Shown: positions 1,505-57,114, numbered from the stretch's first letter. The stretch: 64,000 nt of DNA from Lytechinus pictus (GCF_037042905.1 NC_087251.1:24120001-24184000); one strand, 5' to 3'. Notes: generated by a model not told the origin, from the letters alone. Numbers and translations are program-made.

Positions 1505-4500
1505 TGTAACGTGAGACCCTATCAAAATAACCTTTTAAAAATAGTATGCTGCCACCACAATAGTTTAGAGAGTTATTGAGCTCTTGGCCAAGCATAATTT
1601 AACACTTGACCGTAATGAAGAAACTTTTCTTCGATGAGAACTTTAAAGAGCTAGTGAACCACCAATCAGAATAGCTATCTCATGATCCATAATATCTGAG
1701 TTCTACTACGAGCTCCGCGATTGGTCCATCTTCTTGCATCGACCGCCAACTTTTAGCCTCTCCATTCTGCCAGAACCACAGAGGTTGAAGGAGCTCCGAT
1801 GATCTGAAGAAAACCGTCTTTTCTCCCATCACAAGACTTCTGTCATACTCCAGCGTCCTGACCTTCACAGCAGAATTTAACTGGTGAGTTTACTCACTAA
1901 GTGATTTAGTAAGATTTAATTATATAACCATGATATTTCTCATCTTTCATCGATAGAGTTAGCCCTGAACCAAATCTCTATTTACTCACATACAACACGT
2001 TTTGTTCGCCTCGTGTTCTACACACACACGATCAGGCATATCCAGATCACACACGTGCAGTCGTATGGACATAGGCAATCATAGAAGCGGTCAGTCCTTG
2101 CTTCGCAATCAATCATTCTAGTCTTTTCCTCAGTTCTCAAATCTGCTCTTTATCACTGGGTTTCACTAGGTAAGCGTAGTTTTCCAAGCTCGATGACGAG
2201 TTCCGTTTTCTTGCAATATACAAGGTTGGTCTATAAATAAACTAAGAACCCTAACTTAAATAATGCTTAAACTAATTGTACGGTACTTCTTATCCCTAAT
2301 CACATCATCAATCAATCATCACTAATCAATTGATCACCATTTCTAATTCTAAGACTTAACAACAAATCCAATTTATTGGATTCATCATTCTCAACAAACA
2401 CTGATCACTAATCATGTTCCTTCTGTTCAAGTGTGCAAGTCCAATTACTGATTTCCTAAGAAATAACAAGTAAAGTTCAACTGAACTTTAATATAAGAAA
2501 ACTTGAAGTTAACAATTCTGAAACATTTCAACGATAAAATTTTGATATTTACATCACTTTGCATAAGTATGAAAATTCATTGAATATATGGAATGAGCAA
2601 TATAAAATTGTATAACTTACTCTACATAGTAAAGAACCTAAATGTAAGTCTGTGCATGTCACTCTTAAATTGATAGAATGATAAATAGAATAATAATTAA
2701 TTACTAACTTAATAAATCCTATGTATTCACTGTTTTGAATACACTAAGCAATAATCTGTATCAATTGTAAATATCGAGCTGTAGCTAAACTACATCCTAC
2801 TTAGTTCTGTACTTTATACTCCGTAGAGTTGTGTTCTCTCTAAGAATTATTTCAACTTAAGACTGTAATCTACTCTCCACAAAAGTTCCAGGACCAATGG
2901 TTCTTTTCTGTCGTTCTGACTTATGTGAGTAATCCTATCTAAACTGCCAGCAGTTACTCAACACCTTTCTCCATCCAATGTCACTAACCCAATACAACAC
3001 ACCAATCTCCAATAATATCCTTATCCTATCAACCTCTCAACGGGCCTTGTTTACCAGCCTTACAGCGCCTACAAAACTTCCACTCACTTTGTCGGTGTGA
3101 AGTTTGTAACAACATCCAACATTCTGTGTGATGAAAAGCCTCAGAAATCCGTAAATATCTCTAATCATCACGGGTTCAAGAATAGACTCACATAGTACCT
3201 TTCTTAGCATTAAAGCCTACCAGAAACTTTAACCTCGTCCCTGCTGTCTGAGAATACAGCTAAATGAAAACAAGTCTGAAAGACCAACACCTAAGCAATT
3301 ATTCCTATTTCACTGTAACTAAATTTACCATCTATTAATACAGTGTCAATATTCTAAATGAAGAATTAAGCTTCATCTATAAACTGAGTTTACTTCAGTC
3401 TATGACTATAAACATCAAGTATTCTTAATAAAACATGTGAATGACTGCACAGAGAGTTTAAATTATTTACAAGTTGTTTACAAATGCTTTCTGATTGATA
3501 ATCAGCTATTTACATTTCATTGATTATTTACATAGATTACCTTGTAATCAATATTCTAGTTACATTGTATTTGTCAGATTATCAGAATTAATATTCAGTA
3601 TTCTGATCTGAATAACATTAAGTATTCTGATATGTATAACATTAAGTATTCTGATCTGTATAACATGAAGTATTCTGATCTTATAACATGAAGTATTCTG
3701 ATCTTAACAACTACGGGAATAGCATGCTTGACACCTAAGTAACACGTGATCTTAACATCCGAACACTCATGATGACTAGCTTTGTTTAGTGTGATCCTAT
3801 TTGTATATGATGTAAGAAATGTAAATAAATAATCAAAGTCATTAATCCTGAAATTAGAATTGAGTTAACAACTCTATCAATAAATATCCTTTAAACGACC
3901 AATGTGGAAAAATCCCAAAGTCAGATCAATATTCAAAGCGATACCAAAACAACACACATTCCAGAACAACTTGACAGTTTTATGTCAAATGTTACTGACC
4001 AAAAGATAATCTCTGTTTAAAGATTGAAAATCTGACACTAGCCTTTTCCACGTTGGTAGAATAATTCTATCAATGCAGTAATTTAATTTCTCTGACTAGA
4101 TAATTTGATTAAATATTCAGACTGTCAAGAGTCCTAAAAAGGACTGCCTAAATATTGTCATCAAGTCAGAAATAAATTCATAATAATATAAAATGCATAA
4201 ATTATCCAATTTCATAAATAAGGTAATTAAATATCCATTCAGGAGATTCCTTGAAAGATAAATTAACAGTCAGCATTCATGTTCACTATTGTGACTATCA
4301 ATTAATTTCTATCTGCTCCAAACAATTGTTTTCATGTCAAAAAGAGCACTAGTAAGCACCAATAAATGCATTCATATCTTCTCTAGATATCTATCAAACA
4401 ATTAGTAGACTTGACAAATCAATCAAAGTCTGCTAAAGAATAACAAAAGCTGCCCAATTTCTGTGAACAACTGATAAATCCAAGCTGACTATAAAGAAAT

Positions 4501-5493
4501 TCAACAGAGTATTGGTTGCCAAAAAAATCATCACTAATCCCAAAAAGGTGACGAATGATTTCAAATTCCTAGCTAAAATTCATCATTATTCTCACTGAAT
4601 TCCCTGAATGAATCTAAGTGTCATATTATGACGTAATGTACTCACAGAAGAATGTACAATGTAGAAAGAGAAACAGAGAACGAGAATTCTCGAGAGAGTG
4701 AATGTGAATTGTGACTAGGAGAGCTAACTTAACTCGAGAGAGCTTCCAGACGATATGACAAACTCCTCAAACCTCCCCTATTTATAGACTTTTGGCCCCC
4801 CAGGATTTTGGCAATTTCTGAGCTCATTGCATTACGCGGCGGGTTGTTATGTAATTTTAGTGCTTTAAAAACCACTCTTTCCACATAAACATTACGCAGC
4901 AGGATGCTATGCAAATTCAATACTTTAAAATACCAATGATAGCGCGTCTGTGCGCGTATGCGCGCATCAGAGCTTTAGATCCAAGGAAGAGTTCAAAATC
5001 CTGGCGGTAATTGTCTCAGAATAAAGGAAAATAACAGTATCCAAACATGAATGAAGAAATTCCAGCAATAAATTAATGCTGTCATCAACATCCAGAGAAT
5101 CTACACAAAAGGTAAGATTCTAATTTTGACTTAGAGCTATTTAAACGCTCATAAAATTTCATAACAGACCATACCGGTCCCATAAATAGATCATACTGCT
5201 GGCTCTACGTGAATATGGCGTGACTCAGCAGAAATATACCAATTCCTCTGCGCTAACACGTATGCGCGCACACTAGCAATTAATCCAAGTAAATTCACCA
5301 GTCTCTCTCCGGAATTCAGGTCACAGTTCACGTAGTAAAAACAGCTGATCGCCGGCATTCAATGACTATACTGGAGTTCAGTTACGTGATGTAAACAAAC
5401 AAAGCTCAATATTAAAAAATGGAATATGGGGAAATCTAAATCTTTATTTTGAAGATTAGATCTTTCTTTTAACGAAAAGGGGTTTTCTTCACA
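1505..5493 (-). repeat. 3' LTR (3,989 bp)
   Basis: tgtaacgtga...ttcttcaca, repeated at 11737-15725; the only difference noticed by eye is g2045 vs c12277. Confidence 0.97.
3597..3708. repeat. 24-bp tandem repeat (~4.7 copies) inside the LTR; also at 13829-13940
   Basis: Units of agtattctgatctgtataacatta. Confidence 0.85.
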
Positions 5494-5505
5494 CTACCCC
5501 CCGCC
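5494..5505 (-). other. Polypurine tract (PPT)
   Basis: Minus strand ggcggggggtag immediately precedes the TG of the 3' LTR. Confidence 0.85.
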
Positions 5506-5645
5506 AAATAAAGTCACTGTCCCAGTGACTACATTAAAATAGCATTAAATATCAATATATAGCAATACATGAATATTCATGTACATAAAAGTATTCTTAA
5601 ATATCATAAAATACATAAAGATCATACAAAATACATGACAACAAA

Positions 5646-6716
5646 TTACTTTGCAACTTTTGGTCTTTTCTCCGGATAGTGAGAGTCAATTAATCTTCTT
5701 TTTAGAGTGTATCCATTCTTGGTCTTGGTATAATACGATGTCGCAATTGTAACCTTTGATACTATTTGGATCTGTTCACTTTGGCACCCAGGAAGTTTTA
5801 TAGAAATATTCTGTTTATCACCGACAAGTTCAACAATTCTACTTTCTGGTTTATCTTCTGTGTTGCCTTCTGCAATCTGTCTGATTTCCTCCTTCAATCT
5901 CTTCTCCTCATCTTCTAATCTTTTCTTCTCTAACTCCCTTTCTTTCTCTAGTCTCTCTTCTTCCTGTCTTTTTGCTAACTCCTGCTTGGCTTCTTTTTCA
6001 CGTTTCCTTCTCTCTAGCTTCCTCTTTTCTTCCTCTAATCTTTTCTCCTCCTCCTCTATCTTACGTTTCTCCTCTTCTAGCTGCTTTCCTTCCTCATCCA
6101 GTTGCCTCTCCTCTTCTTCTTTCTCCCTACTTTCCTCTAGTTTCCTTCGTTCTTCTATGATCTCTTCGTCTAACTCGTCTACTGTACTCCTATCAACCCT
6201 TTTCCAAACTCTTTCCTGACTATCCTTCCTCCTTCCTTCCTCTATTGCTTCTTGTCGCCTCCTTTCCTCCTCTTTCCTCTTCCTCTGTTCTTCTCGTCTG
6301 TTCTTCTCTTTCTCCCTTTCTTCTTCAATCTGTCTCCTCTTCTCCCTTTCCTGCTGTTCCTCCATCCTGTCTTTAGGCTTAGGCAAAGTTGGGCTAGATC
6401 GTAGCGTGTCTACTTCTTTGGTATGAGCTCTATGATGTCGTTTGTAATGCTGTCTCATTGTCTCTCTTCTCTCAGTCTCGTGATTACATCTTTGACAGTG
6501 AATAAGAAAAGTCATTTGATGAACCTTCCGTAAATGATAGTTTAATTCCGGATAAGTTGAAAATACTCTTTTGCACTGGCTGCATATATAACTTCCATCC
6601 TGGTACTGTAAGATACAAATTACAAAGTATACAAGGCATATAATTGTATGTTGTCATACATACAATAAAAATGATAAAGGAATATTGTTGAATAAATTTC
6701 TGAATACAGTCATCAT
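5646..6716 (-). CDS. Retrotransposon accessory ORF3: two C2H2 zinc fingers + E/K/R coiled coil + basic C-terminus (~322 aa, predicted spliced)
   Basis: The frame of ORF 5646-6515 extends 30 codons upstream to the acceptor tcttacag| at 6605, adding YICSQCKRVFSTYPELNYHLRKVH before IHCQRCNHETERRETMRQHYKRHH. An in-frame caccATGATGACT|gt lies at 6716-6708 (candidate intron 6707-6606). Confidence 0.8.
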
Positions 6717-6741
6717 GGTGAAGATGTATTGCTTCTGTGAC

Positions 6742-8228
6742 TCAAAGTTCAATGTATCTTTGTGGTGGAACCCTGTTTCTATTTGGATTATGCCTGATTT
6801 CTTGTGTCAACCAGTTTTTCAAAGGCTTTCCAGTATAAGCCTTTAGTCGATCGATGTGCACCACCTTTGGTTTGCCTCTCGATGATTCCTGGATTCGATA
6901 TACGACATCAGAAAGTTTGGTTACTACCATAAATGGTCCTTTCCATTTCATGCACAGCTTAGGGCACACTCCTTTCTTCCTTGATGCGTCGAATAACCAC
7001 ACCCATTCTCCAGTCGTAAAACTTCGCTGAATGATATTTCTATCATAAGACTTAGCCTGTCTTTCAGCTGCAATTCCAAGTTTTTCTCTAGCACCTTCAT
7101 GTACCTCGTGTAACTTTTCCCTCACATCACTCACATAGTCTGATTCTTCTTCATTTGCAGGTGTTGGAGAAGGTAACAGCAAATCTACCGGCAGACTGAT
7201 TTCTCTTCCAAGCATCATCATAGCAGGACTCTCTCCAGTTGATTCCTGGACTGCTGATCTGTATGCCAACATCGCGAACGGAATCCTCTCATCCCAGTCC
7301 TTCTGTTCGTCATCTGGATTGAGCAATGACGACACCATACCCAGTAAGGTTCTATTAAATCTTTCTATAAATCCATCTCCTTGTGGGTGTAGTGGGCAAG
7401 TCCTTGTTTTCTTAATACCAAGCATCTTACACATCTCTGCCATCAGCCTTGACTCAAAATTCCTCCCTTGGTCACTATGTAGTTCTTTTGGTATTCCATA
7501 CCGACAAATAAACTCCTCCACTAGTACCCTAGCAACCGTCTCCGCCTCCTGATCTGGTAATGGGTACGATTCTATCCATTTCGTGAAATAGTCTCCCACG
7601 ACTAACACATACTTGTTTCCACTGTCCGTCTCGGGTAAAGGGCCCAAAATGTCCATCGCTACCCTTTCTAGTGGTGCACCAACTCTATATTTCTGAAGTG
7701 GAGCTTTATTCTTCTTTGGGGGGTTTTTCAGCTGTGCACAGATAGTACATCTCTTAATCCACAATCGCACATCTGCAGCAAGTCCAACCCAGTAATATCT
7801 CCTGTGTACTTTATGCAATGTCTTATTGACTCCAAGATGAGCAGCTGTTTGAGAACCATGTAATTCCTCCAGTACTGTACTTCGCAAAGAACGAGGGAGT
7901 ACAATTTTCCAAGTTATCTCCTTTCCATCTTCTGATTCCCATCTCCTCATCAAGACACCTTTTTGTACCTCTAGCAAAGTCCAGTTTACCCAGTAAACCT
8001 TAGTAGCTGATGATAGGTGTGAAACATCTTTCCAGCTCGGTCGCTCACTGCATATTTCCTTCCATCTCAAAATATGTTTTATGTCTCCATCTTGTAACTG
8101 TGCCTTCCTGATTTCCTCTTCAGTTATTGGCGTAAATGTTATGGTAGACATCTCCTTTTCATCACACTCTCCAGCCTCCATGTCAAAATCTCGTGTTAAG
8201 TAAGCACGATAGAATCCAATATAGTTCA
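6742..8228 (-). CDS. Integrase (HHCC, DDE core, GPY/F), in a different frame from RT-RH
   Basis: HGSQTAAH...CTIC, MDILGP, HSDQG, IERFNR, WKGPF; no chromodomain evident. The 5' end is uncertain (candidate acceptor at 8228, or ATG at 8181). Confidence 0.93.
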
Positions 8229-8323
8229 CTATCGAAAAACAATAATATAAATTCAATTAATGTCACAGATTCACAATCAAATAGAAATAAAGTCTTTTTT
8301 TTTTCTCTTTCACTTCCAGTCTT

Positions 8324-10300
8324 CTAAAATCTCCTACAATGTCGGCAATCGGTGCAAGGCCGTCTGGATAACCCATCAGCATTCAAGTGGACACGTCCAG
8401 CACGATGCTCTAAGGTGAGTTGATACTGTGTTATCACTTCAAGCCATCTGGCTAACTGTCCTTCAGGATTCTTAAACTGTAATAGCCACCTAAGTGCACC
8501 ATGATCTGTTCTAACTTTCACTTGTTGTCCATACAGATAATGACGGAAATACTTGAGAAAGTTTACAACAGCTAATAGCTCCCTCCTTGTTACGCAGTAA
8601 TTCTGTTCTGCAGGATTTAGAGTCTTACTGGCATATGCAATAACCCTTTCCTTTCCCTCTTGCTCTTGTGAAAGTACTGCTCCTATTGCAAAATTGCTGG
8701 CGTCTGTATCAAGAATGAATCCAACATTCAGTCTTGGGTAGGCTAGAATTGGGGCGGTCGTTAACAGTCTCTTCATCATCTGAAAAGCCTCCTCGCATTC
8801 TGTTGTCCAGATAAAGGGCTCATCTTTCTTGGTTAGATTGGTAAGTGGTTTCACAACATCAGAGAATTTGAGTATGAATCTCCTGTAGTAGGATGCTAAT
8901 CCAAGGAAACTTCGCACCTCTGTCTGGTTGGTTGGTGTGGGCCATGATTTAACAGCCTCTATCTTATCCGGGTCAGTCTTCACTCCATCGGACGATACCA
9001 CATGTCCCAGATATAAGACCTCCTTCTGAAATAGATGACACTTCTTGGGTTTCAATTTCAGATTTGCTTCTCTTAGTCGCTGTAGAGTTATTCTCATTCT
9101 ATTGATCATCTCAGATACATTAGAGCCATAGACTATTATGTCATCTAGGTAGATTAAGAGTATCTTCCATTGCAGACCTCTGAACACATTTTCCATCAAC
9201 CTCTCAAAAGTAGATGGCGCATTGCAAAGTCCGAATGGCATGACCTCGAACTGGTATAATCCTCCTGGTACCACAAATGCTGATTTTTCTTTAGCGTCAT
9301 CATCTAGTGGAACTTGCCAGTAGCCTGAAGCTAAGTCTAGCGTGCAAAAGTAACTTGCACCTTCAAGAGAATCCAGTGATTCAGCAATGTTAGGTAATGG
9401 AAATGAATCTTTCACAGTATTCTGATTCAGGAGTCTGTAGTCTACGCAGAATCGTTTGGTTCCATCCTTCTTATCCACCAATACTATCGGGGAAGACCAG
9501 GCACTGGATGAAGGTGTGATGATTCCACGTGTAAGCATGTCTTCAATTTGCTGCTCTACTTCTTCCCTCTGTCCCATAGGGTGGCGTCTAGGTCTCTGCC
9601 TAATAGGGGCATTGCTTGTAGTATGGATACTGTGCTTCACCTTGTCAGTACATCCAATATCATGGTCGCCTTTTGAGAATACATCACCGAAATCTGTCAA
9701 TAGGGTAGCAACATCAGAATGGTGAGCATCTTCAATGTTCGGTTTAGCTCTCTCAAAGACATCTGTCAAATGTTCTGGTACCTCCTGTTTGATGACCATT
9801 GCCAATCTGCTACTTCTGTGATTTGTGCACGAAATAGTCTCTCCATGTAAGGTTACCATCATTCGCTCACAATCAATAGTTGCATTTGTTTCTTGTAAGA
9901 AGTCCATTCCAATAATTCCATCCACATCGATTCCAGCTATAATGACAGACACATCATACATCCTTCCAGAAATGCTCATTGGAATAACTGTCTCCCCAAA
10001 TACTTCAATTGGGGTTCCATTGGCTTGTCTCAGTTGAATTTCTGTCTCCTTCACACCTGGCATTCTATCATGGTATGCTTGACCCAAAATAGCTCCAGAC
10101 ACAATAGTTATTGTTGACCCAGTGTCTACCAACATGTATTTTGTTTCACTCCTTATATCTACTGGTATATACATAGCTTGGTTAACATCTCGAATAATGC
10201 AAATCAAGGGATTCGCTGCTTCTAGTTGAAAATCTAGTTCTGTGGACCTGTCTGGTCTGGCCGTCCCGTGGTCCTGCGAGTAGGCCTTCTGTCGTTTCCC
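8324..10300 (-). CDS. pol: pol: aspartic protease - reverse transcriptase - RNase H
   Basis: LVDTGS (PR); RFCVDYR, LDLASGYWQ, MPFGL, YLDD (RT); DTDAS, TRRELLA, RTDH, NADGLSR (RH). It overlaps the gag end in the -1 frame. Confidence 0.96.
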   Translation of the reverse strand, partial: GKRQKAYSQDHGTARPDRSTELDFQLEAANPLICIIRDVNQAMYIPVDIRSETKYMLVDTGSTITIVSGAILGQAYHDRMPGVKETEIQLRQANGTPIEVFGETVIPMSISGRMYDVSVIIAGIDVDGIIGMDFLQETNATIDCERMMVTLHGETISCTNHRSSRLAMVIKQEVPEHLTDVFERAKPNIEDAHHSDVATLLTDFGDVFSKGDHDIGCTDKVKHSIHTTSNAPIRQRPRRHPMGQREEVEQQIEDMLTRGIITPSSSAWSSPIVLVDKKDGTKRFCVDYRLLNQNTVKDSFPLPNIAESLDSLEGASYFCTLDLASGYWQVPLDDDAKEKSAFVVPGGLYQFEVMPFGLCNAPSTFERLMENVFRGLQWKILLIYLDDIIVYGSNVSEMINRMRITLQRLREANLKLKPKKCHLFQKEVLYLGHVVSSDGVKTDPDKIEAVKSWPTPTNQTEVRSFLGLASYYRRFILKFSDVVKPLTNLTKKDEPFIWTTECEEAFQMMKRLLTTAPILAYPRLNVGFILDTDASNFAIGAVLSQEQEGKERVIAYASKTLNPAEQNYCVTRRELLAVVNFLKYFRHYLYGQQVKVRTDHGALRWLLQFKNPEGQLARWLEVITQYQLTLEHRAGRVHLNADGLSRRPCTDCRHCRRF

Positions 10301-11268
10301 TGGTACGGTTTGCTGCAAACACGACTGATGTGTCCAGGCTCTCCACAGTTGAAGCACACAACTCGTGGTGGACCTCCATTCCTGTTCACACTCATCTGCT
10401 TCATCATTGATTTGATTTCTTGTAGGCTTGACTTTAATTCTTGTATCTCCTTCTTTACTCTCTCATCTGCAGGTGACGACTGCACAGCATCCCCTACTGC
10501 TCTGACGTGACGTGGCCTAATCCTCTCTCGTGACTTCTCCGTCTGTAGAAAAGACTCTGTCGTCAACGCAGCTGTAATCGCCTCTTCAAGCGTTCTAGGA
10601 TGAGCCCGGAAAATGGCAGCCCTGATTTCACCATCTTCAATTGCTTCTGAAAAGTGTCCACGAGCAAGCCTCTCTCTAGCATCGTTGCTCAGCTCCGGGT
10701 AGGCTAGGCAAGTCAAATCTCTAATTGCCTGACCTAATTCCTGTAGACTCTCCTTCGGCTGTCGACGCCTAGTCCTCAACTCCAGCAAGAAATTTTCAGC
10801 ATTCTCTCTTGGTCCAAATCGTCGCTCCAAATGGGAAGTGAGATTGGAGTACGTAAGTTCTTGTCCAACTGGAATATTATTCAAGACCTTCAGTGCAGCG
10901 CCTTGCAGTCTCGTGGCAAGATATTGTCCAGCCTCGACATCATCCCAATTATTCAATCTTCTGCAGACGTCAAAGTGTCGGCAATAGTCCGTCCATGGTA
11001 CCTTCCCAGCAAACTTATCCGGCAAAACGTCCCTAGCTCCAGATCCTCTCAGTTTCTTCGGGTCGGTCGTTTGGTGACTCCCAACATAGGAAGCATTATT
11101 TCGGAATTGAGTTGGCGTATAAACCTGGCGCCTCTCCGCAGGAATAGCATCTCCATAATTTGCCATGTCTACCGCTATCTCCGGATCCTGCTCATCTAAT
11201 ACCCAGCTCCTCTGGACTCCATTATTTCCAGGATCTCCTGCTGCCAACTCAGCACTTGGTTCCATCAT
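10234..11268 (-). CDS. gag: gag with CCHC zinc knuckle
   Basis: CFNCGEPGHISRVC knuckle; capsid-like PDKFAG...RRQPKESLQELG; first ATG at 11268 (MMEPS). Confidence 0.92.
   Translation of the reverse strand: MMEPSAELAAGDPGNNGVQRSWVLDEQDPEIAVDMANYGDAIPAERRQVYTPTQFRNNASYVGSHQTTDPKKLRGSGARDVLPDKFAGKVPWTDYCRHFDVCRRLNNWDDVEAGQYLATRLQGAALKVLNNIPVGQELTYSNLTSHLERRFGPRENAENFLLELRTRRRQPKESLQELGQAIRDLTCLAYPELSNDARERLARGHFSEAIEDGEIRAAIFRAHPRTLEEAITAALTTESFLQTEKSRERIRPRHVRAVGDAVQSSPADERVKKEIQELKSSLQEIKSMMKQMSVNRNGGPPRVVCFNCGEPGHISRVCSKPYQGNDRRPTRRTTGRPDQTGPQN
10240..10300 (-). promoter_or_regulatory. -1 ribosomal frameshift signal (G GGA AAC + predicted pseudoknot)
   Basis: Slippery heptamer 10300-10294 is in the correct gag phase; 7-nt spacer; stem ggcc-ta-ctcg / cggg-ac-ggcc with loop ggacc complementary to downstream ggtcc. 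Confidence 0.8.
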
Positions 11269-11712
11269 ACCGAGTGCTATAATGTTTAATATATTTGGAT
11301 GTATGTTTATTTTCTTGTGTTTAAGTATAAACATACATGTTTTAGATTGTGTCAAGCAAACGTACCCTTACATTGTAAAAGGAATAGATACATTGTAAAA
11401 GGAGTAGATTTCCTTATTATTCACAGTGATTAATTCACTGTCATGTCCATAGACATATAAATGCTCATTTTCCATATTCAATCTTAACTTATTTAATGCA
11501 CACTTGTAATAAGGAACTCAAAACACAACTTATTTATTATACATAGCTTAAACAATACATTCTTAAATATCTACTAGTACCGTACACAACTATACATAAT
11601 AATAGCAAAATTTTTATATACTTAATACAGATCATTCTACTACTTAGCAGACAAAAATGTACCGGTATTTTTTTTTTTTCTTTTAAAAGTGGAGGGGTTC
11701 TTTGAAAAGACC

Positions 11713-11732
11713 ATCCCACCGCCGTGCCACCA
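11713..11732 (-). other. Primer-binding site, tRNA-Leu-like
   Basis: Minus strand tggtggcacggcggtgggat, 4 nt inside the 5' LTR; complementary to the tRNA-Leu 3' end as I recall it (atcccaccgctgccacca) apart from 2 extra nt. Confidence 0.75.
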
Positions 11733-11736
11733 AAAA

Positions 11737-14700
11737 TGTAACGTGAGACCCTATCAAAATAACCTTTTAAAAATAGTATGCTGCCACCACAATAGTTTAG
11801 AGAGTTATTGAGCTCTTGGCCAAGCATAATTTAACACTTGACCGTAATGAAGAAACTTTTCTTCGATGAGAACTTTAAAGAGCTAGTGAACCACCAATCA
11901 GAATAGCTATCTCATGATCCATAATATCTGAGTTCTACTACGAGCTCCGCGATTGGTCCATCTTCTTGCATCGACCGCCAACTTTTAGCCTCTCCATTCT
12001 GCCAGAACCACAGAGGTTGAAGGAGCTCCGATGATCTGAAGAAAACCGTCTTTTCTCCCATCACAAGACTTCTGTCATACTCCAGCGTCCTGACCTTCAC
12101 AGCAGAATTTAACTGGTGAGTTTACTCACTAAGTGATTTAGTAAGATTTAATTATATAACCATGATATTTCTCATCTTTCATCGATAGAGTTAGCCCTGA
12201 ACCAAATCTCTATTTACTCACATACAACACGTTTTGTTCGCCTCGTGTTCTACACACACACGATCAGGCATATCCACATCACACACGTGCAGTCGTATGG
12301 ACATAGGCAATCATAGAAGCGGTCAGTCCTTGCTTCGCAATCAATCATTCTAGTCTTTTCCTCAGTTCTCAAATCTGCTCTTTATCACTGGGTTTCACTA
12401 GGTAAGCGTAGTTTTCCAAGCTCGATGACGAGTTCCGTTTTCTTGCAATATACAAGGTTGGTCTATAAATAAACTAAGAACCCTAACTTAAATAATGCTT
12501 AAACTAATTGTACGGTACTTCTTATCCCTAATCACATCATCAATCAATCATCACTAATCAATTGATCACCATTTCTAATTCTAAGACTTAACAACAAATC
12601 CAATTTATTGGATTCATCATTCTCAACAAACACTGATCACTAATCATGTTCCTTCTGTTCAAGTGTGCAAGTCCAATTACTGATTTCCTAAGAAATAACA
12701 AGTAAAGTTCAACTGAACTTTAATATAAGAAAACTTGAAGTTAACAATTCTGAAACATTTCAACGATAAAATTTTGATATTTACATCACTTTGCATAAGT
12801 ATGAAAATTCATTGAATATATGGAATGAGCAATATAAAATTGTATAACTTACTCTACATAGTAAAGAACCTAAATGTAAGTCTGTGCATGTCACTCTTAA
12901 ATTGATAGAATGATAAATAGAATAATAATTAATTACTAACTTAATAAATCCTATGTATTCACTGTTTTGAATACACTAAGCAATAATCTGTATCAATTGT
13001 AAATATCGAGCTGTAGCTAAACTACATCCTACTTAGTTCTGTACTTTATACTCCGTAGAGTTGTGTTCTCTCTAAGAATTATTTCAACTTAAGACTGTAA
13101 TCTACTCTCCACAAAAGTTCCAGGACCAATGGTTCTTTTCTGTCGTTCTGACTTATGTGAGTAATCCTATCTAAACTGCCAGCAGTTACTCAACACCTTT
13201 CTCCATCCAATGTCACTAACCCAATACAACACACCAATCTCCAATAATATCCTTATCCTATCAACCTCTCAACGGGCCTTGTTTACCAGCCTTACAGCGC
13301 CTACAAAACTTCCACTCACTTTGTCGGTGTGAAGTTTGTAACAACATCCAACATTCTGTGTGATGAAAAGCCTCAGAAATCCGTAAATATCTCTAATCAT
13401 CACGGGTTCAAGAATAGACTCACATAGTACCTTTCTTAGCATTAAAGCCTACCAGAAACTTTAACCTCGTCCCTGCTGTCTGAGAATACAGCTAAATGAA
13501 AACAAGTCTGAAAGACCAACACCTAAGCAATTATTCCTATTTCACTGTAACTAAATTTACCATCTATTAATACAGTGTCAATATTCTAAATGAAGAATTA
13601 AGCTTCATCTATAAACTGAGTTTACTTCAGTCTATGACTATAAACATCAAGTATTCTTAATAAAACATGTGAATGACTGCACAGAGAGTTTAAATTATTT
13701 ACAAGTTGTTTACAAATGCTTTCTGATTGATAATCAGCTATTTACATTTCATTGATTATTTACATAGATTACCTTGTAATCAATATTCTAGTTACATTGT
13801 ATTTGTCAGATTATCAGAATTAATATTCAGTATTCTGATCTGAATAACATTAAGTATTCTGATATGTATAACATTAAGTATTCTGATCTGTATAACATGA
13901 AGTATTCTGATCTTATAACATGAAGTATTCTGATCTTAACAACTACGGGAATAGCATGCTTGACACCTAAGTAACACGTGATCTTAACATCCGAACACTC
14001 ATGATGACTAGCTTTGTTTAGTGTGATCCTATTTGTATATGATGTAAGAAATGTAAATAAATAATCAAAGTCATTAATCCTGAAATTAGAATTGAGTTAA
14101 CAACTCTATCAATAAATATCCTTTAAACGACCAATGTGGAAAAATCCCAAAGTCAGATCAATATTCAAAGCGATACCAAAACAACACACATTCCAGAACA
14201 ACTTGACAGTTTTATGTCAAATGTTACTGACCAAAAGATAATCTCTGTTTAAAGATTGAAAATCTGACACTAGCCTTTTCCACGTTGGTAGAATAATTCT
14301 ATCAATGCAGTAATTTAATTTCTCTGACTAGATAATTTGATTAAATATTCAGACTGTCAAGAGTCCTAAAAAGGACTGCCTAAATATTGTCATCAAGTCA
14401 GAAATAAATTCATAATAATATAAAATGCATAAATTATCCAATTTCATAAATAAGGTAATTAAATATCCATTCAGGAGATTCCTTGAAAGATAAATTAACA
14501 GTCAGCATTCATGTTCACTATTGTGACTATCAATTAATTTCTATCTGCTCCAAACAATTGTTTTCATGTCAAAAAGAGCACTAGTAAGCACCAATAAATG
14601 CATTCATATCTTCTCTAGATATCTATCAAACAATTAGTAGACTTGACAAATCAATCAAAGTCTGCTAAAGAATAACAAAAGCTGCCCAATTTCTGTGAAC

Positions 14701-15725
14701 AACTGATAAATCCAAGCTGACTATAAAGAAATTCAACAGAGTATTGGTTGCCAAAAAAATCATCACTAATCCCAAAAAGGTGACGAATGATTTCAAATTC
14801 CTAGCTAAAATTCATCATTATTCTCACTGAATTCCCTGAATGAATCTAAGTGTCATATTATGACGTAATGTACTCACAGAAGAATGTACAATGTAGAAAG
14901 AGAAACAGAGAACGAGAATTCTCGAGAGAGTGAATGTGAATTGTGACTAGGAGAGCTAACTTAACTCGAGAGAGCTTCCAGACGATATGACAAACTCCTC
15001 AAACCTCCCCTATTTATAGACTTTTGGCCCCCCAGGATTTTGGCAATTTCTGAGCTCATTGCATTACGCGGCGGGTTGTTATGTAATTTTAGTGCTTTAA
15101 AAACCACTCTTTCCACATAAACATTACGCAGCAGGATGCTATGCAAATTCAATACTTTAAAATACCAATGATAGCGCGTCTGTGCGCGTATGCGCGCATC
15201 AGAGCTTTAGATCCAAGGAAGAGTTCAAAATCCTGGCGGTAATTGTCTCAGAATAAAGGAAAATAACAGTATCCAAACATGAATGAAGAAATTCCAGCAA
15301 TAAATTAATGCTGTCATCAACATCCAGAGAATCTACACAAAAGGTAAGATTCTAATTTTGACTTAGAGCTATTTAAACGCTCATAAAATTTCATAACAGA
15401 CCATACCGGTCCCATAAATAGATCATACTGCTGGCTCTACGTGAATATGGCGTGACTCAGCAGAAATATACCAATTCCTCTGCGCTAACACGTATGCGCG
15501 CACACTAGCAATTAATCCAAGTAAATTCACCAGTCTCTCTCCGGAATTCAGGTCACAGTTCACGTAGTAAAAACAGCTGATCGCCGGCATTCAATGACTA
15601 TACTGGAGTTCAGTTACGTGATGTAAACAAACAAAGCTCAATATTAAAAAATGGAATATGGGGAAATCTAAATCTTTATTTTGAAGATTAGATCTTTCTT
15701 TTAACGAAAAGGGGTTTTCTTCACA
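11737..15725 (-). repeat. 5' LTR (3,989 bp)
   Basis: Near-identical to 1505-5493; followed on the minus strand by the PBS. Confidence 0.97.
15011..15018 (-). promoter_or_regulatory. Candidate LTR TATA box (copy at 4779-4786)
   Basis: ctataaatagggg on the minus strand ~710 bp into the LTR, followed ~135 nt later by a consensus donor gtgagt (14877). Confidence 0.55.
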
Positions 15726-18489
15726 CTATGTTCAGGCGTGAAAATGGGACATTTTACATGTGTTAAGCACCTTTTGTAATCCTGAACAGGGTGCGCGTGT
15801 TAATGAATATTTTTAACTATTAATGCGCGCGCGAACGCGAGTCGAAATTTGTTATAAACTAATATGAAAAGGAGATTTTAAGTAGTTTTTAGAATGAATA
15901 TAAAAGTATACATAAAATGCAAGCACGCAGAGCTATGAGTTTTGACAATAAGACCTGAAAAGGAATTGTTCCAATGGTTGACAGAACCTTGCTGCTACAC
16001 CAAATAAATTGGCCTAGTCGTGTTAGTAAAATTTTCAACCCACTACAAGAGAGAAGTTCATATAAGTATAAACGGACAAAGTGGATAATAATCACCTTCA
16101 CATTTTTTACAGACGTTACCAAAATAGTTGAGTCAGAAATAGCCGGTTTCCGATGTATCATTACATTTTAACCATTTAAAAATATATATCCTAAAGTATC
16201 TAGCGAATTCATTTATACGTTTTCATTGTAGATGACCATTAAGAATTTGCTATTATGACGGCCATCTTTGAATTTTTATGGAAAAATAACTTTTTAACAA
16301 AATACCATGTATATTGTCAATATACATCACTCGATATTGCTCTAAAATGATACCAGTGTGCCTGTGACAAGAGATTTCTCTTGTCACAGGCACACTACCG
16401 AATTGCTTCTTGGACTTTACTTGTTGGAATATCAATGCCTTGCTCTACCGTGTATACTGAAATTACTTAATTGCAATTCTCAATCTAGGGAAAACTGAAC
16501 AATTGCAGGACTCTTTGCTCTGATTGTAAGCTCAGACACAATTATGAAGTATAGTAGTAGTATTCATTTCCGTATTAAAAGCACAATTATATACAATAAA
16601 ATACGGTGGATAGCCCACATTCAGCGTGACTGGCACAATCACGCTGGTTTTCCGTGGGGTCCAAAACATTTAACATTAACATATAAGTTAGATACAATAA
16701 AAGCAGATTAAAATAACAGATGTACAGAAGATAAATGAAAATAGTGACGATATAATGTTTCGCTATGAACTTTTGAATTTTGGGTGCATTGTACTGTTAA
16801 TATTTATAAAACGTGGATTTAATTGAATTGGTTTTCACAATGATCTAGGACTTTGTTTACAACCACTTTCTGTTCTTCAGATTTTGAGTGTTGTCAATCA
16901 TGAGCATACGGCCACAACAAGAATTATTTGTTTGTGTGCTTTTTTCAAAAACAGTAATGTTAAAACTACACCGCCGGTTTTAAAGAGGATGATCATAACA
17001 TGGAGTAGCTCCATGATCATACCAAGCATTGTACACTACAGCGTGTCCCACAAAACATGTTAATGGCACTTTAAATGAGTATAATGTGAAATTACTCAAT
17101 CCTATTGTATATAATTTATGTAATCATAAATTAGCATTTTTTCATACAACTGGCTTGAATTTCATGCAATATTATTCATTAAACAAAGAGAGATGGGCCT
17201 TCTTTCAGATTTCATGAGAAAACCTCTCAGTCCAAGTTTCGTTATTGCATTGAATAAAGTACGCACCCAATCACGTCTTCATTCACTATTAATCTATTTC
17301 CTTTTTTTAGATTTTCGGCCCACAACTTGCGGGCCGATACTTAAATTTAAAAGGAAAATGAAGGTTTAAAAAGATTGGCATGACATCTTTAATCAAACGT
17401 GATTAATCAAACATGAAATTTACTTTAAACCAATGGGATGCACGGTTAGTGACTTGCGGTTGATTTTTAGTTGTTTTTAAAGGCAACACTTTCTGCAACA
17501 GGCCCCTGGACTAGCATTATGCAATCGAGAACATTCTGTTTAAATATTCGATCCGAATAAAGAAATATCTATTAAGTCACTGGTTATTGAGCCCAGAATC
17601 TTTCATTGAGCTGATGGTGCCTATTGTGCTGATTGTGCCCTCAGAGTAACTAAATAGGATTAGAGAACAAGAGAAACAAAAATACACGGGGGTTGGGCAG
17701 GGCCCTGTGAACGATATTTTAACTGGGGGTGCTGATGTAAATTTGACAAGCAAAAAAAAAAATCACTAAAAAAATGAAGGTCACTTTGGTCCTGAGAAAG
17801 GGGGGCACTTTTGTTTAACATTTATTAATTTATATTAGAATCCCAGGGGGTGCTGCAAATGAAGAATAATACACGCAGCACCCCCAGTAAAATATTGGGG
17901 GTTCAGCACCCCGCTTCCCAGGACCATGCCCCCCCCCTTCGCTGACTAAGGTCATGTGTAGTGCCCGAAAGGATTACATGGGGCTGAAAATATCCCGTTT
18001 TCAAAATAATCTGTTTCAAAGATATTTTGTACTATATTATATTTTTTTTCTATTTTAGTTTAGCGAGATAGGCACCCTACTCAGGATTACAAAAGATGCC
18101 GAATAAATTTTCAACCTGAGCTTCACTCTGGCATTTTTTCTTTCACAAATGAGATAAACAGCTTGCTATCTGTTAAAAGACATGCTATTGTCTGGTTAGA
18201 AAATGCAAAGTTTTTTGCTTGCCCCTCGCGCTCGCATTGTTTAGGTAAATACGCATCAAATTAATTATTAAACAAATGTGATAGCTTATCCAATTTTTAG
18301 CTCTCAGTCTCTCCCAATTTTAGCTCGCGCTTCACGCTGTCATTTTTGTTTAGTGAGATATATATTCTTTTCTGCCATGAAAGACATGTTTAAAATGCTC
18401 CGTTTTTAATTCGAGATTTTCAACTCACGGTTCGGGCTCGCATCAATCGTTTAATTAGATACTGATAATGTTCATGATTTTGTGGTGAT

Positions 18490-51700: not shown

Positions 51701-54700
51701 GTACACAAACCTTGTATGTCATGGGTGTTCGTCGGACTAGTCAAGCAATCTCGGAATGTTTCCGAAAACATCTGAAAGTGACCAAAGTTTGAGGCTACAC
51801 GTTCAGAAAATTCGCAGCTTGCGCTCTCACTGGATGCGAGCTTGACGAAGCTGATCGATTGCACCGAACACCTAGCCTAGCTAGCTAGCTGTTTAGCCTG
51901 CCGCGGGGCACCGTGAGGATATTTCATGTGCATGTATGCTGCAATTATGTGAGTGTTGACAGACCGAGTGAGGTAAATTCAACCAAAGACAGCAGAATGT
52001 GGCAATAATGGATTCGTTAGAGGCCGAAAAAAGGACAAAACCCAGTGCAAGGATATATCTTCACAATGCTTACAAAGAGTGGGTCCGACAAAGGGACAGC
52101 TTTCTTAAATCCCGGCCCAGAAGCAGGCTTGGGCAATCTGATGAAGAGTTCGCCCTCCACCTTCTCCATGGCCATGGCTTTAGTGGACTACATGGCTTGC
52201 AGGCCCACAGCCCGGCAGGGGTAGCTTGCATGCAGCTGCATACGCGCCGCAGCGAAATCGAATAGCCGAGATATCCCAATTCGTTCAGTTCAATTTCACT
52301 GGTCCTAAATATGGAGATTATAATGCCTTCAGTCCAGAGAAAGCGAATTGCTCGCAAATACATGAATTACCCCTGGCTGGATGCTTTAATAGAGGATTTG
52401 GTAACCTCACCGCATTGGTCAACCTTTTGTCAATTTTGACATAGAATTGTGTGAGATCAGTTTGCAATTAAACTGAATCTCTATAGTTGATGTAGAAACT
52501 CCTAGTTCTTGAAAGGAGAGATGAGAATGAATGCTGTGATAGTCACATCCCATCCCATAAAGTTGATATAGAAACTCCTAGTTCTTTAAAGGAGAGATGA
52601 GAATGAATGCTGTGATAGTCACATCCCATCCCATAAAGTTGATATAGAAACTCCTAGTTCTTTAAAGGAGAGATGAGAATGAATGCTGTGATAGTCACAT
52701 CCCATCCCATAAAGTTGATGTAGAAACTCCTAGTTCTTGAAAGGAGAGATGAGAATGAATGCTGTGATAGTCACATCCCATCCCATAAAGTTGATATAGA
52801 AACTCCTAGTTCTTTAAAGGAGAGATGAGAATGAATGCTGTGATAGTCACATCCCATCCCATAAAGTTGATATAGAAACTCCTAGTTCTTTAAAGGAGAG
52901 ATGAGAATGAATGCTGTGATAGTCACATCCCATCCCATAAAGTTGATATAGAAACTCCTAGTTCTTTAAAGGAGAGATGAGAATTAATGCTGTGATAGTC
53001 ACATCCCATCCCATAAAGTTGATATAGAAACTCCTAGTTCTTTAAAGGAGAGATGAGAATGAATGCTGTGATAGTCACATCCCATCCCATAAAGTTGATA
53101 TAGAAACTCCTAGTTGTTGAAAGGAGAGATGAGAATGAATGCTGTGATAGTCACATCCCATCCCATAAAGTTGATGTAGAAACTCCTAGTTCTTTAAAGG
53201 AGAGATGAGAATGAATGCTGTGATAGTCACATCCCATCCCATAAAGTTGATATAGAAACTCGTAGTTCTTTAAAGGAGAGATGAGAATGAATGCTGTGAT
53301 AGTCACATCCCATCCCATAAAGTTGATATAGAAACTCCTAGTTCTTTAAAGGAGAGATGAGAATGAATGCTGTGATAGTCACATCCCATCCCATAAAGTT
53401 GATGTAGAAACTCCTAGCTCTTTAAAGGAGAGATGAGAATGAATGCTGTGATAGTCACATCCCATCCCATAAAGTTGATATAGAAACTCCTAGTTCTTTA
53501 AAGGAGAGATGAGAATGAATGCTGTGATAGTCACATCCCATCCCATAAAGTTGATATAGAAACTCCTAGTTCTTTAAAGGAGAGATGAGAATGAATGCTG
53601 TGATAGTCACATCCCATCCCATAAAGTTGATATAGAAACTCCTAGTTCTTGAAAGGAGAGATGAGAATGAATGCTGTGATAGTCACATCCCATCCCATAA
53701 AGTTGATATAGAAACTCCTAGTTCTTGAAAGGAGAGATGAGAATGAATGCTGTGATAGTCACATCCCATCCCATAAAGTTGATATAGAAACTCCTAGTTC
53801 TTTAAAGGAGAGATGAGAATGAATGCTGTGATAGTCACATCCCATCCCATAAAGTTGATATAGAAACTCCTAGTTCTTTAAAGGAGAGATGAGAATGAAT
53901 GCTGTGATAGTCACATCCCATCCCATATAGTTGATATAGAAACTCCTAGTTCTTGAAAGGAGAGATGAGAATGAATGCTGTGATAGTCACATCCCATCCC
54001 ATAAAGTTGATGTAGAAACTCCTAGTTCTTTAAAGGAGAGATGAGAATGAATGCTGTGATAGTCACATCCCATCCCATAAAGTTGATATAGAAACTCCTA
54101 GTTCTTGAAAGGAGAGATGAGAATGAATGCTGTGATAGTCACATCCCATCCCATAAAGTTGATATAGAAACTCCTAGTTCTTTAAAGGAGAGATGAGAAT
54201 GAATGCTGTGATAGTCACATCCCATCCCATAAAGTTGATATAGAAACTCCTAGTTCTTGAAAGGAGAGATGAGAATGAATGCTGTGATAGTCACATCCCA
54301 TCCCATAAAGTTGATATAGAAACTCCTAGTTCTTGAAAGGAGAGATGAGAATGAATGCTGTGATAGATGCTGTGATAGTCACATCCCATCCCATAAAGTT
54401 GATATAGAAACTCCTAGTTCTTTAAAGGAGAGATGAGAATGAATGCTGTGATAGTCACATCCCATCCCATAAAGTTGATATAGAAACTCCTAGTTCTTTA
54501 AAGGAGAGATGAGAATGAATGCTGTGATAGTCACATCCCATCCCATAAAGTTGATATAGAAACTCCTAGTTCTTTAAAGGAGAGATGAGAATGAATGCTG
54601 TGATAGTCACATCCCATCCCATAAAGTTGATATAGAAACTCCTAGTTCTTTAAAGGAGAGAAGAGAATGAATGCTGTGATAGTCACATCCCATCCCATAA

Positions 54701-57114
54701 AGTTGATATAGAAACTCCTAGTTCTTTAAAGGAGAGATGAGAATGAATGCTGTGATAGTCACATCCCATCCCATAAAGTTGATATAGAAACTCCTAGTTC
54801 TTGAAAGGAGAGATGAGAATGAATGCTGTGATAGTCACATCCCATCCCATAAAGTTGATGTAGAAACTCCTAGTTCTTTAAAGGAGAGATGAGAATGAAT
54901 GCTGTGATAGTCACATCCCATCCCATAAAGTTGATATAGAAACTCCTAGTTCTTTAAAGGAGAGATGAGAATGAATGCTGTGATAGTCACATCCCATCCC
55001 ATAAAGTTGATATAGAAACTCCTAGTTCTTGAAAGGAGAGATGAGAATGAATGCTGTGATAGTCACATCCCATCCCATAAAGTTGATGTAGAAACTCCTA
55101 GTTCTTTAAAGGAGAGATGAGAATGAATGCTGTGATAGTCACATCCCATCCCATAAAGTTGATATAGAAACTCCTAGTTCTTGAAAGGAGAGATGAGAAT
55201 GAATGCTGTGATAGTCACATCCCATCCCATAAAGTTGATATAGAAACTCCTAGTTCTTTAAAGGAGAGATGAGAATGAATGCTGTGATAGTCACATCCCA
55301 TCCCATAAAGTTGATATAGAAACTCCTAGTTCTTTAAAGGAGAGAAGAGAATGAATGCTGTGATAGTCACATCCCATCCCATAAAGTTGATATAGAAACT
55401 CCTAGTTCTTTAAAGGAGAGATGAGAATGAATGCTGTGATAGTCACATCCCATCCCATAAAGTTGATATAGAAACTCCTAGTTCTTGAAAGGAGAGATGA
55501 GAATGAATGCTGTGATAGTCACATCCCATCCCATAAAGTTGATGTAGAAACTCCTAGTTCTTGAAAGGAGAGATGAGAATGAATGCTGTGATAGTCACAT
55601 CCCATCCCATAAAGTTGATGTAGAAACTCCTAGTTCTTGAAAGGAGAGATGAGAATGAATGCTGTGATAGTCACATCCCATCCCATAAAGTTGATATAGA
55701 AACTCCTAGTTCTTTAAAGGAGAGATGAGAATGAATGCTGTGATAGTCACATCCCCCATAAACTAAAAATGTGCCTTGTAGAATGATCACCTATGTCAGA
55801 GAAACAAATCTTCAGTCATAATTTCAATCAGTTTGATATACTATGTTAGGCTATTTCTTTAAAAGATGACCATGATTATAAAGTATGAAAAATATTGATC
55901 TATATCACTCTCTTACAGTGATTCCTAAACATCAATGGTATTCAATTTTGCTGACGTTATTAGATGATTTACAAAAAAAAAAATTCTCATATTTTCTTCC
56001 CTTTGCGAAGCCATTGCTGCTAGTAATGTTGAAGATGTCAGGACAGTACTGGAATTCTACCAACAGTTTGATGACCCAATGGAAGCTTTCAGGATTAACC
56101 AGGCTAGATTACAGGTCAGAATAATTATATCATATTGACTGTCCTGAAAGGGATACCACACGTATATATTTCCCAAAGTAGTCTCATATTGCCCCAAGTT
56201 GTGACAGGAGTAATATGGGTCTTCCGAGGAAAATATATTTGTGGTATCTCCCAGAAACTAACGCCATTCAATATTATTAATACCTACAGCTGGATGATAT
56301 GTCATTCAAGCAATTATTTGTAGCAGTTTATATGCCTGCTTGTTTTTTTCCTACTGCTGATTTCAGGTTATTAATGAAGTAATCCTGGCTACCGGTATAT
56401 CATGTCATAAATTGTTATCGTGCAGGCAAGAACGATGCGCTGCATGCGCATCCAATGTGCACACAACCTTATGCTTGGGTTTGATCAGCTGAGAATATGG
56501 ATATTATGGGCTGAAATTTAGTACAGAGGTGCAATAGGAAAATAACAAATCTCATCGAGGAGGGATGTATGAATATTACGTTTTACAGTTTAGAATTATT
56601 AGACCACTTTCCTACTAATGTTCCATACGGTATGGTCTAATAATTATTACCAAAGCTGTAGTTTTTTTTTTTTTCTGAATATTTTGTCAAAATCTAACAC
56701 AAAATGAAATTTTCATTTGAAAAGTTATAAATTTTCCCCCCACTTCGCTAGCTTGGCACTTTTAAGAAATTTGTCACACACTATTTTGTGCCCCCCTCAA
56801 TTTTTGGTTCACTAAACCACTGATTGTAACTTTGTCATTATGGCAAACTACTGTAGTAACATGGCTCAGCAGCCAATCTCAATCAAGGATATGGTGGTTG
56901 CCATAATGGCAGTGCTACTGAAGTTGTAACTCTTTATATGAAACAGGCCCCTGAATATTAGATCAACATACTCTTGATGATTAATATTTCATCTTCATTT
57001 GATGTATTTTAGAGAGAGCAAGAGGAAGAGGCAAAGAGACTAGCAGAAGCCAAAGAGAAAGGTGGTACATCACTAGTAGGAGGCTTGACCAAGGGATTGA
57101 TTGGAAGAAGATGA
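42799..57114 (+). CDS. TIMM50: Mitochondrial import inner membrane translocase subunit TIM50 (~394 aa, 9 exons)
   Basis: Exons 42799-43180, 45744-45775, 46253-46333, 46785-46904, 48389-48496, 50291-50389, 50986-51142, 56011-56114, 57013-57114. Arg-rich presequence, TM segment, [50 protein letters not shown]. Confidence 0.96.
43283..43912. mobile_element. TIR-bounded non-autonomous element in TIMM50 intron 1
   Basis: ggggtgtccaaacttcgcg vs cgcgatgtttggactcac inverted termini. Confidence 0.5.
49755..50001. mobile_element. Palindromic MITE with 9-bp TSD (AcademH- or Mutator-like)
   Basis: tagccttgaggactc / gagtcctcaaggcta; perfect TSD tgcttaacc (49746-54, 50002-10). Confidence 0.85.
52485..55761. 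repeat. 76-bp tandem array, ~43 copies, in TIMM50 intron 7
   Basis: Unit agttgatatagaaactcctagttctttaaaggagagatgagaatgaatgctgtgatagtcacatcccatcccataa; two recurrent variant sites; one 12-bp duplication near 54360. Confidence 0.97.

Follow-up and report, generated by a model that had tools for sequence, protein, structure and literature searches.

A clade of sea urchin gypsy retrotransposons with the integrase in a separate reading frame

In textbook retrotransposons with long terminal repeats (LTRs) and in orthoretroviruses, the integrase is packaged within Gag-Pol and released by the protease. A Ty3/gypsy element of the sea urchin Lytechinus pictus raises the question of how an integrase is supplied when pol is cut in front of it. 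The element is located on the minus strand of a 64,000-nt window (NC_087251.1:24120001-24184000, the whole stretch of DNA that was analysed and to which all coordinates refer) and occupies 14.2 kb, from 1505 to approximately 15725. Its two LTRs differ by one mismatch in 3992 aligned letters; the element was inserted recently, in agreement with a preliminary description made from the sequence alone. The pol frame (8324..10462), in which PR (protease), RT (reverse transcriptase) and RH (RNase H) are recognised by Pfam, is closed by a TAG (8326-8324) right after the C-terminal CxxC motif of RH. A spacer of 142 nt (8182..8323, 27% G+C) follows, and the integrase is encoded behind it by a stand-alone open reading frame (ORF) of 479 amino acids (6742..8181), which opens with its own ATG in the context GACATGG and comprises the zinc-binding, rve core and C-terminal domains. 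Relative to pol, integrase is read in the +1 frame, in which the spacer contains two stops, TGA at 8265-8263 and TAA at 8259-8257. The split and its stops, reported in the preliminary description, were verified on the minus strand. That description attributed them to a spliced intron or, alternatively, to damage in a copy mobilised in trans.

The interrupted pol frame across the clade

The relatives of the element were searched with residues 400-712 of the RT-RH part, and the best 120 of 7854 matches were listed. All 24 nearest relatives, 72-84% identical over nearly the whole query, are devoid of integrase domains. They terminate 17-31 residues past the start of the NADxxSR motif, compared with 19 residues in the window protein, an agreement far beyond chance. 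Thirty-two further cluster members were examined, 11 of which lack the motif and are gag, integrase or partial sequences. The other 21 all end where their representative ends, so the shared stop is not accounted for by the ends of contigs. In a FastTree phylogeny of 201 RT-RH rows (155 fused to integrase, 30 short-tailed and 16 in between), the window and the 24 relatives form one clade with a local support of 0.99, and its sister row is fused. Five short-tailed rows fall outside this clade.

The integrase gives the same picture from the other side of the spacer. Its 12 best matches are stand-alone proteins of 474-506 amino acids with 61-80% identity. Named matches, to Lytechinus variegatus (97%) and Strongylocentrotus purpuratus (66-73%), fit a sea urchin as the host. 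A tree of 225 integrase rows contains the integrase clade of 23 rows with a support of 1.0, none of whose members has an RH motif upstream of the integrase. No fused close relative was found among longer proteins, where the best 120 of 1303 matches reach at most 55% identity; such a blank is weak evidence by the search tool's own account, and it agrees with both trees. No DNA of the clade was found in metagenome contigs (79 loci, the best at 63% identity, from about a third of the collection), nor in viral contigs or contigs of prokaryote genomes (8 loci in the latter, 37-47%). The separate integrase frame is a real trait of the whole clade. Counted as clusters at 90% identity, the families that have retained a separate integrase gene number some 20 or more.

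These results bear directly on the proposal that the linker was damaged in this copy alone, the element being mobilised in trans, or that the assembly is in error. In its favour, only 3 of 4 letters agree in the target-site duplication, and a T-run at 8295-8304, suspected earlier as an assembly error, is nearly devoid of raw reads (mean depth 0.1 in one of three raw runs), so that its exact length is provisional. An insertion or deletion in the T-run cannot, however, explain the split, because one stop precedes the run and two follow it. The stop is clade-wide, both trees agree, no member of the clade is fused and independent runs from two organisms keep the stop. Damage or error is therefore rejected, and we regard it as extremely improbable.

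The integrases of the clade appear to have a start of their own. In all 20 that were examined, a count which leaves out the window, one N-truncated row or model and one duplicate, the first conserved motif is preceded by 18-48 residues, and in the integrase of the window by 23. In an alignment of 17 rows the first methionine is a nearly invariant column. The second residue is encoded by a GNN codon in 15 of the 20, against a background of 31% (p=7e-5), an excess as expected from the eukaryotic start context. Judged from these sequences, translation very probably starts at the ATG at 8181 and yields a free integrase, which would thus be encoded by a gene in its own right. The preliminary description had mentioned this ATG as the possible start of a spliced subgenomic message. 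The ATG may indeed be used. A junction at the acceptor of such a message was not seen.

A similar arrangement occurs in metagenome loci of a soil lineage of gypsy elements. Among 63 metagenome loci that match both RH and integrase, nine (L041, L042, L045, L049, L051, L065, L068, L069 and L078) have a stand-alone integrase ORF that opens with its own ATG; another 11 are split too, but seem damaged or could not be resolved. As in the urchin clade, pol of the soil lineage stops right after RNase H. The integrase ATG is offset from the pol stop by -17 to +2 in six of the nine loci, where stop and start overlap or nearly do so, and by +22, +46 and +90 in the others, compared with 142 nt in the urchin element. 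In an RT tree of 111 rows (FastTree with midpoint root, monophyly not formally tested), the soil loci fall in a separate clade of 17, which meets the urchin clade only at a node of 107 of the 111 leaves. Because the soil loci form a separate clade and fused elements lie between the two, the split of the urchin elements is likely to be an independent origin in animals. A second, likely independent origin suggests that the uncoupling of integrase is an accessible and repeated step.

The spacer and splicing across it

Sister copies of the element were compared over 8060-8800 in four sequencing runs (X1, X3, X6 and X11). For X1, X3 and X11 the type of run is a guess or not on record; contigs show neither strand nor level, and rare forms are lost from them. 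A DNA contig of 2294 nt from another organism, here organism B, spans 8160-8800, with 22 substitutions and 5 gap letters, all of which were listed. The pol stop, the integrase ATG, and the GT and AG of the intron discussed below are all unchanged in it. Its spacer has 11 substitutions and 3 insertions or deletions in 142 nt, compared with 11 substitutions, 8 of them synonymous, and no insertion or deletion in 474 nt of RH (p=0.007). In the X1 contig the counts are 6 in 62 for the spacer and 10 in 427 for RH (p=0.009). The spacer therefore diverges 3-4 times faster than RH, and its length varies modulo 3 between copies owing to frame-changing insertions and deletions. It evolves as non-coding sequence.

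The preliminary description postulated that a 109-nt intron (8229..8337) is removed from this region, fusing RH and integrase into one polyprotein. The GT at 8337 and the AG at 8230-8229 do exist, enclose 109 nt and are in phase 1 at both ends, and both are conserved in organism B. In-frame joins of this kind are, however, no rarer than chance: 17 of the 49 GT/AG pairs in the neighbourhood give one, and the match of phases therefore carries no weight. In organism B, one nucleotide is deleted at 8207, a position that lies behind the proposed acceptor and ahead of the ATG; the deletion is present in both X6 (DNA) and X11 (probably RNA) and shifts the fusion out of frame. None of the four runs has a joint or, in all rows but one, a loose end at 8228/8338, and the stretch is still present in contigs of X1 and X3. 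Across 5497-15728, neither X1 nor three raw RNA runs (X22-X24) showed anything joined to 8228; the raw runs are shallow, with 32-35 reads each on 10 kb. The contig evidence only lowers the likelihood of sense splicing. Together with the methionine and start-context bias of the clade integrases, and with the only splice seen at this place being on the opposite strand, these observations make the fusing intron very improbable. The description had named two findings that would count against it, a continuous RH-integrase frame in sister copies and a lack of junctions at 8228. The outcome was mixed, in that the sister copies proved not to be continuous, whereas junctions at 8228 were not seen. An arrangement like that of Ogre, a spliced junction joining pol domains in a conserved phase, was not seen here: no joint occurs in the four runs and the phase is broken in organism B.

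The splice that was seen runs antisense to the element. Contigs of X3 and X11 depart from the reference at 8320 and continue as loose ends with plus-strand letters, those of 7314-7343 in X3 and of 7334-7343 in X11. The skipped 976 nt (7344..8319, plus strand) start with GTAAGG and end in a T-run followed by CAG, and thus have the exact ends of an intron antisense to the element. The pyrimidine tract of its acceptor is the very T-run (8295-8304) that had been suspected as an error. The X3 overlap is 30 letters long with one mismatch, and its RH side is about 87% alike, so it belongs to a sister family; the X11 overlap is 10 letters, for which 0.11 would be expected by chance alone. The splice was seen in two organisms and two studies, the kind of run being guessed. 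A deletion between microhomologies was considered for the 7343/8320 join and rejected, as the shared G is missing from the joined letters, which coincide precisely with GT..AG. Internal raw reads are few, and in these the first mate maps to the minus strand, an orientation that most stranded libraries give for plus-strand RNA. The antisense splice may come from an antisense transcript made by the element, or read-through RNA may have been spliced cryptically.

Another joint, in X1, leads from 8753 to 14321. This form is abundant and keeps the end of RH, the spacer and the integrase, and is without most of the rear part of the 5' LTR, the primer-binding site, gag, PR and RT. Its ends are GC..TT and show no microhomology; it was rejected as a splice and is read as a deleted copy.

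Possible routes to a free integrase

If the integrase is free of Pol, it has to enter the particle without fusion to Gag. Two questions are thus raised, by which route its ORF is translated and how the free protein gets into the particle. A possible answer to both is reinitiation on the genomic RNA, in which ribosomes would complete Gag-PR-RT-RH, scan the 142-nt spacer and restart at the ATG at 8181. Coming after a -1 frameshift and a restart, the integrase would be scarce, yet it would be made beside the RNA that is packaged, and such synthesis would offer a putative route into the particle. Several properties of the spacer suit such scanning. It is free of ATG, whereas 3.2 would be expected (none in 0.7% of 2000 shuffles), and the three other AT-rich spacers of the element have 5, 9 and 14. 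It has no stable fold (z=+0.49), and where ATGs do occur in the spacers of sister alleles, the frames they open are only 1-4 codons long. In X1, X3 and X11, contigs cross the region of the proposed acceptor unspliced, at a depth close to that of the integrase start. A precedent for reinitiation is ORF2 of LINE-1 (PMC4091050, seen in part).

Several points weigh against this route or against the free start itself. The start methionines of the homologues were set by gene callers, which also write GTG and TTG as M. The absence of ATG from the spacer is not strict, as two of three sister alleles (one of the three being two overlapping contigs paired) have upstream ATGs, and the length and signals of the spacer are known only from near-identical copies and not from the wider clade. 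Reinitiation after a long ORF is generally inefficient. In caliciviruses it is aided by a termination upstream ribosomal binding site (TURBS) with the motif UGGGA, and in TURBS-type systems stop and start overlap or lie within a few bases of each other. The urchin element differs from these in its gap of 142 nt and in having no UGGGA upstream (no UGGGA/TGGGA was found on the sense strand at approximately 7941-9005), and the gap is likewise unlike the overlap or near-overlap in six of the nine soil loci. Finally, the few internal raw reads of X22-X24 are on the strand that suggests antisense RNA. With all this taken into account, we prefer reinitiation after the Gag-Pol stop to the other routes and give it about an even chance, as a reading of the sequence.

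The integrase could instead be translated from a subgenomic mRNA. Such a message would arise either by a splice that joins a 5' LTR donor to the acceptor at 8229, or by transcription that starts at an internal promoter within RH or the spacer. The DNA contig of organism B keeps a U-rich tract and the AG (8230-8229) without change, the LTR sequence has a GTGAGT donor about 140 nt past a TATA-like motif, and the strong start context suits a monocistronic message. The downstream ORF3, described below, requires a splice or a start of its own in any case, and env of the Oikopleura Tor elements provides a precedent, being expressed by splicing or from an internal promoter in or just behind pol (PMC4402516, seen in part). 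Against such a message stand the missing joint to 8228 in X1 and the three shallow raw runs and the missing loose end there in the four contig runs. The 93 nt of spacer that the splice would remove are also free of ATG (0 against 2.3 expected), which is a weak point alone. Contigs cannot reveal the starts of RNA or exclude rare or stage-specific spliced forms. We consider a subgenomic message possible, if somewhat unlikely. Improbable, on the other hand, is a third route, in which ribosomes enter internally at the spacer or in which read-through and frameshifting yield a continuous polyprotein. The spacer is AU-rich and unstructured, and past the TAG the pol frame of the window is open for 46 codons, until it meets a TGA that a single base separates from the ATG of integrase. 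The changes of length modulo 3, with the open stretch not kept in sister copies, exclude a conserved recoding path, and divergence 3-4 times faster than that of RH is unexpected for a structured entry site. Read-through of the TAG with a TGA-C-ATG stop-start (8185-8179) was rejected on the same grounds, the open stretch not being kept in sister copies.

Comparison with other elements and further features

The assignment of the element to Ty3/gypsy (Metaviridae) follows from two TG...CA LTRs, a primer-binding site, a polypurine tract, the order gag-PR-RT-RH-integrase, and RT and integrase of the gypsy type; the integrase matches the Ty3 structure PDB 7q5b. It shares with canonical members of the group, among them Ty3 and fused relatives from marine invertebrates, the LTRs, both priming sites, a CCHC gag, the -1 gag/pol overlap and the domain order. 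The usual layout, a single Pol frame with a C-terminal integrase, does not define the lineage and is absent here. Unlike canonical elements, the urchin element encodes integrase apart from pol, in an ORF that follows a stop and a non-coding spacer and opens with its own ATG; it also has an additional ORF3 with C2H2 fingers, and LTRs of 4 kb.

No description of a gypsy integrase split from RH was found in the open literature, a search that did not cover Repbase reports, subscription journals and supplements; in the parts available, PMC2582038, PMC5006619, PMC2774666 and PMC13524379 concern other splits or none. This suggests that the uncoupling of integrase and Pol in a gypsy clade of animals is new, with an earlier annotation in Repbase or subscription journals being possible. 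Retention of the separate gene shows that the coupling of integrase to Gag-Pol is dispensable in animals. Pipelines that require an unbroken pol ORF, such as that in the available part of PMC13524379, would score such active elements as dead.

Other systems resemble the urchin element in single respects. In plant Ogre elements the intron is located between PR and RT. Foamy viruses make a Pol that is not fused to Gag, from its own message and with its own way into the particle; they uncouple the whole Pol, whereas the urchin element uncouples integrase alone. LINE-1 likewise has an enzymatic second ORF behind a stop and a short spacer, translated by low-level reinitiation, but it is a non-LTR element whose ORF2 does not need its AUG, whereas the urchin clade keeps a methionine in a strong context (PMC4091050). 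Ogre, EVADE and BARE are LTR elements that also depart from the single Gag-Pol scheme; they do so by a demonstrated intron (in EVADE for a short Gag), while no sense-strand intron was seen at the RH-integrase boundary of the urchin element (PMC12786077, seen in part). In Tor it is env that is a downstream ORF with its own message, and here it is integrase alone (PMC4402516). Gmr1-like gypsy elements are animal elements with an unusual placing of integrase as well. Their order is PR-IN-RT-RH (IN, integrase) in one frame, while the urchin element has the normal order and a cut frame (PMC2582038 and PMC2774666, both seen in part). Integrase is not located between PR and RT in the urchin element, and two loci with integrase before RT are not sister to its clade in the 111-row tree. 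Troyka was considered as a name for the element and rejected, as CG ends and a 3-bp target-site duplication do not fit (PMC12440569, seen in part).

Behind the integrase lies ORF3 (5646..6605, minus strand), which encodes two C2H2-like fingers and a charged tail and has a homologue in S. purpuratus (E=2e-12). Its first in-frame ATG occurs only after the first finger, and a strong acceptor (AG 6607-6606) is located just upstream. A phase-0 donor at 6864, near the C-terminus of integrase, together with the phase-0 acceptor at 6606 would join integrase and ORF3 in frame. RefSeq gene models predict this join in S. purpuratus (P0133, P0358-P0360) and L. variegatus (P0136); X1 is unspliced across 6864-6606. 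P0362 was rejected as a spliced integrase-ORF3 product and is better read as a variant copy. These data allow a wider and doubtful scenario, in which an old and active echinoid gypsy clade would have freed its integrase from Gag-Pol independently of another lineage, the integrase could be spliced to ORF3 as a switchable DNA-binding tail, and a spliced antisense RNA would cross the spacer.

The remaining parts of the element are all on the minus strand. The 5' LTR (11737..15725, approximately 3989 bp, TG...CA, the repeat block extending to 15728) is paired with the 3' LTR (1505..5493). The primer-binding site (11713..11732), which we take to be of the tRNA-Leu type, begins with TGG 4 nt past the 5' LTR, and the polypurine tract is at 5497..5505. 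The gag frame extends from stop to stop over 10234..11367 and encodes a CCHC zinc knuckle. The pol frame is -1 relative to gag, and their overlap contains the slippery heptamer G_GGA_AAC (10294..10300), at which a -1 frameshift is inferred; the residues QGND are also present in the S. purpuratus gag P0370.

The LTRs are long, about 4 kb each; the TATA-like motif is located only some 700 nt in, soon followed by the GTGAGT donor. The LTR holds a 24-nt tandem repeat and has space for introns. At the target site, only 3 of 4 letters match between 1501-1504 and 15726-15729, despite the LTRs differing at only one letter; Ty3/gypsy elements have target-site duplications of 4-6 bp. The element is flanked by a 53-nt direct repeat (92%) at 334-386 and 17700-17752. 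Farther along the window, 52330-55700 is a tandem array of about 44 copies of a 76-nt unit, 97-99% alike, with one phase slip.

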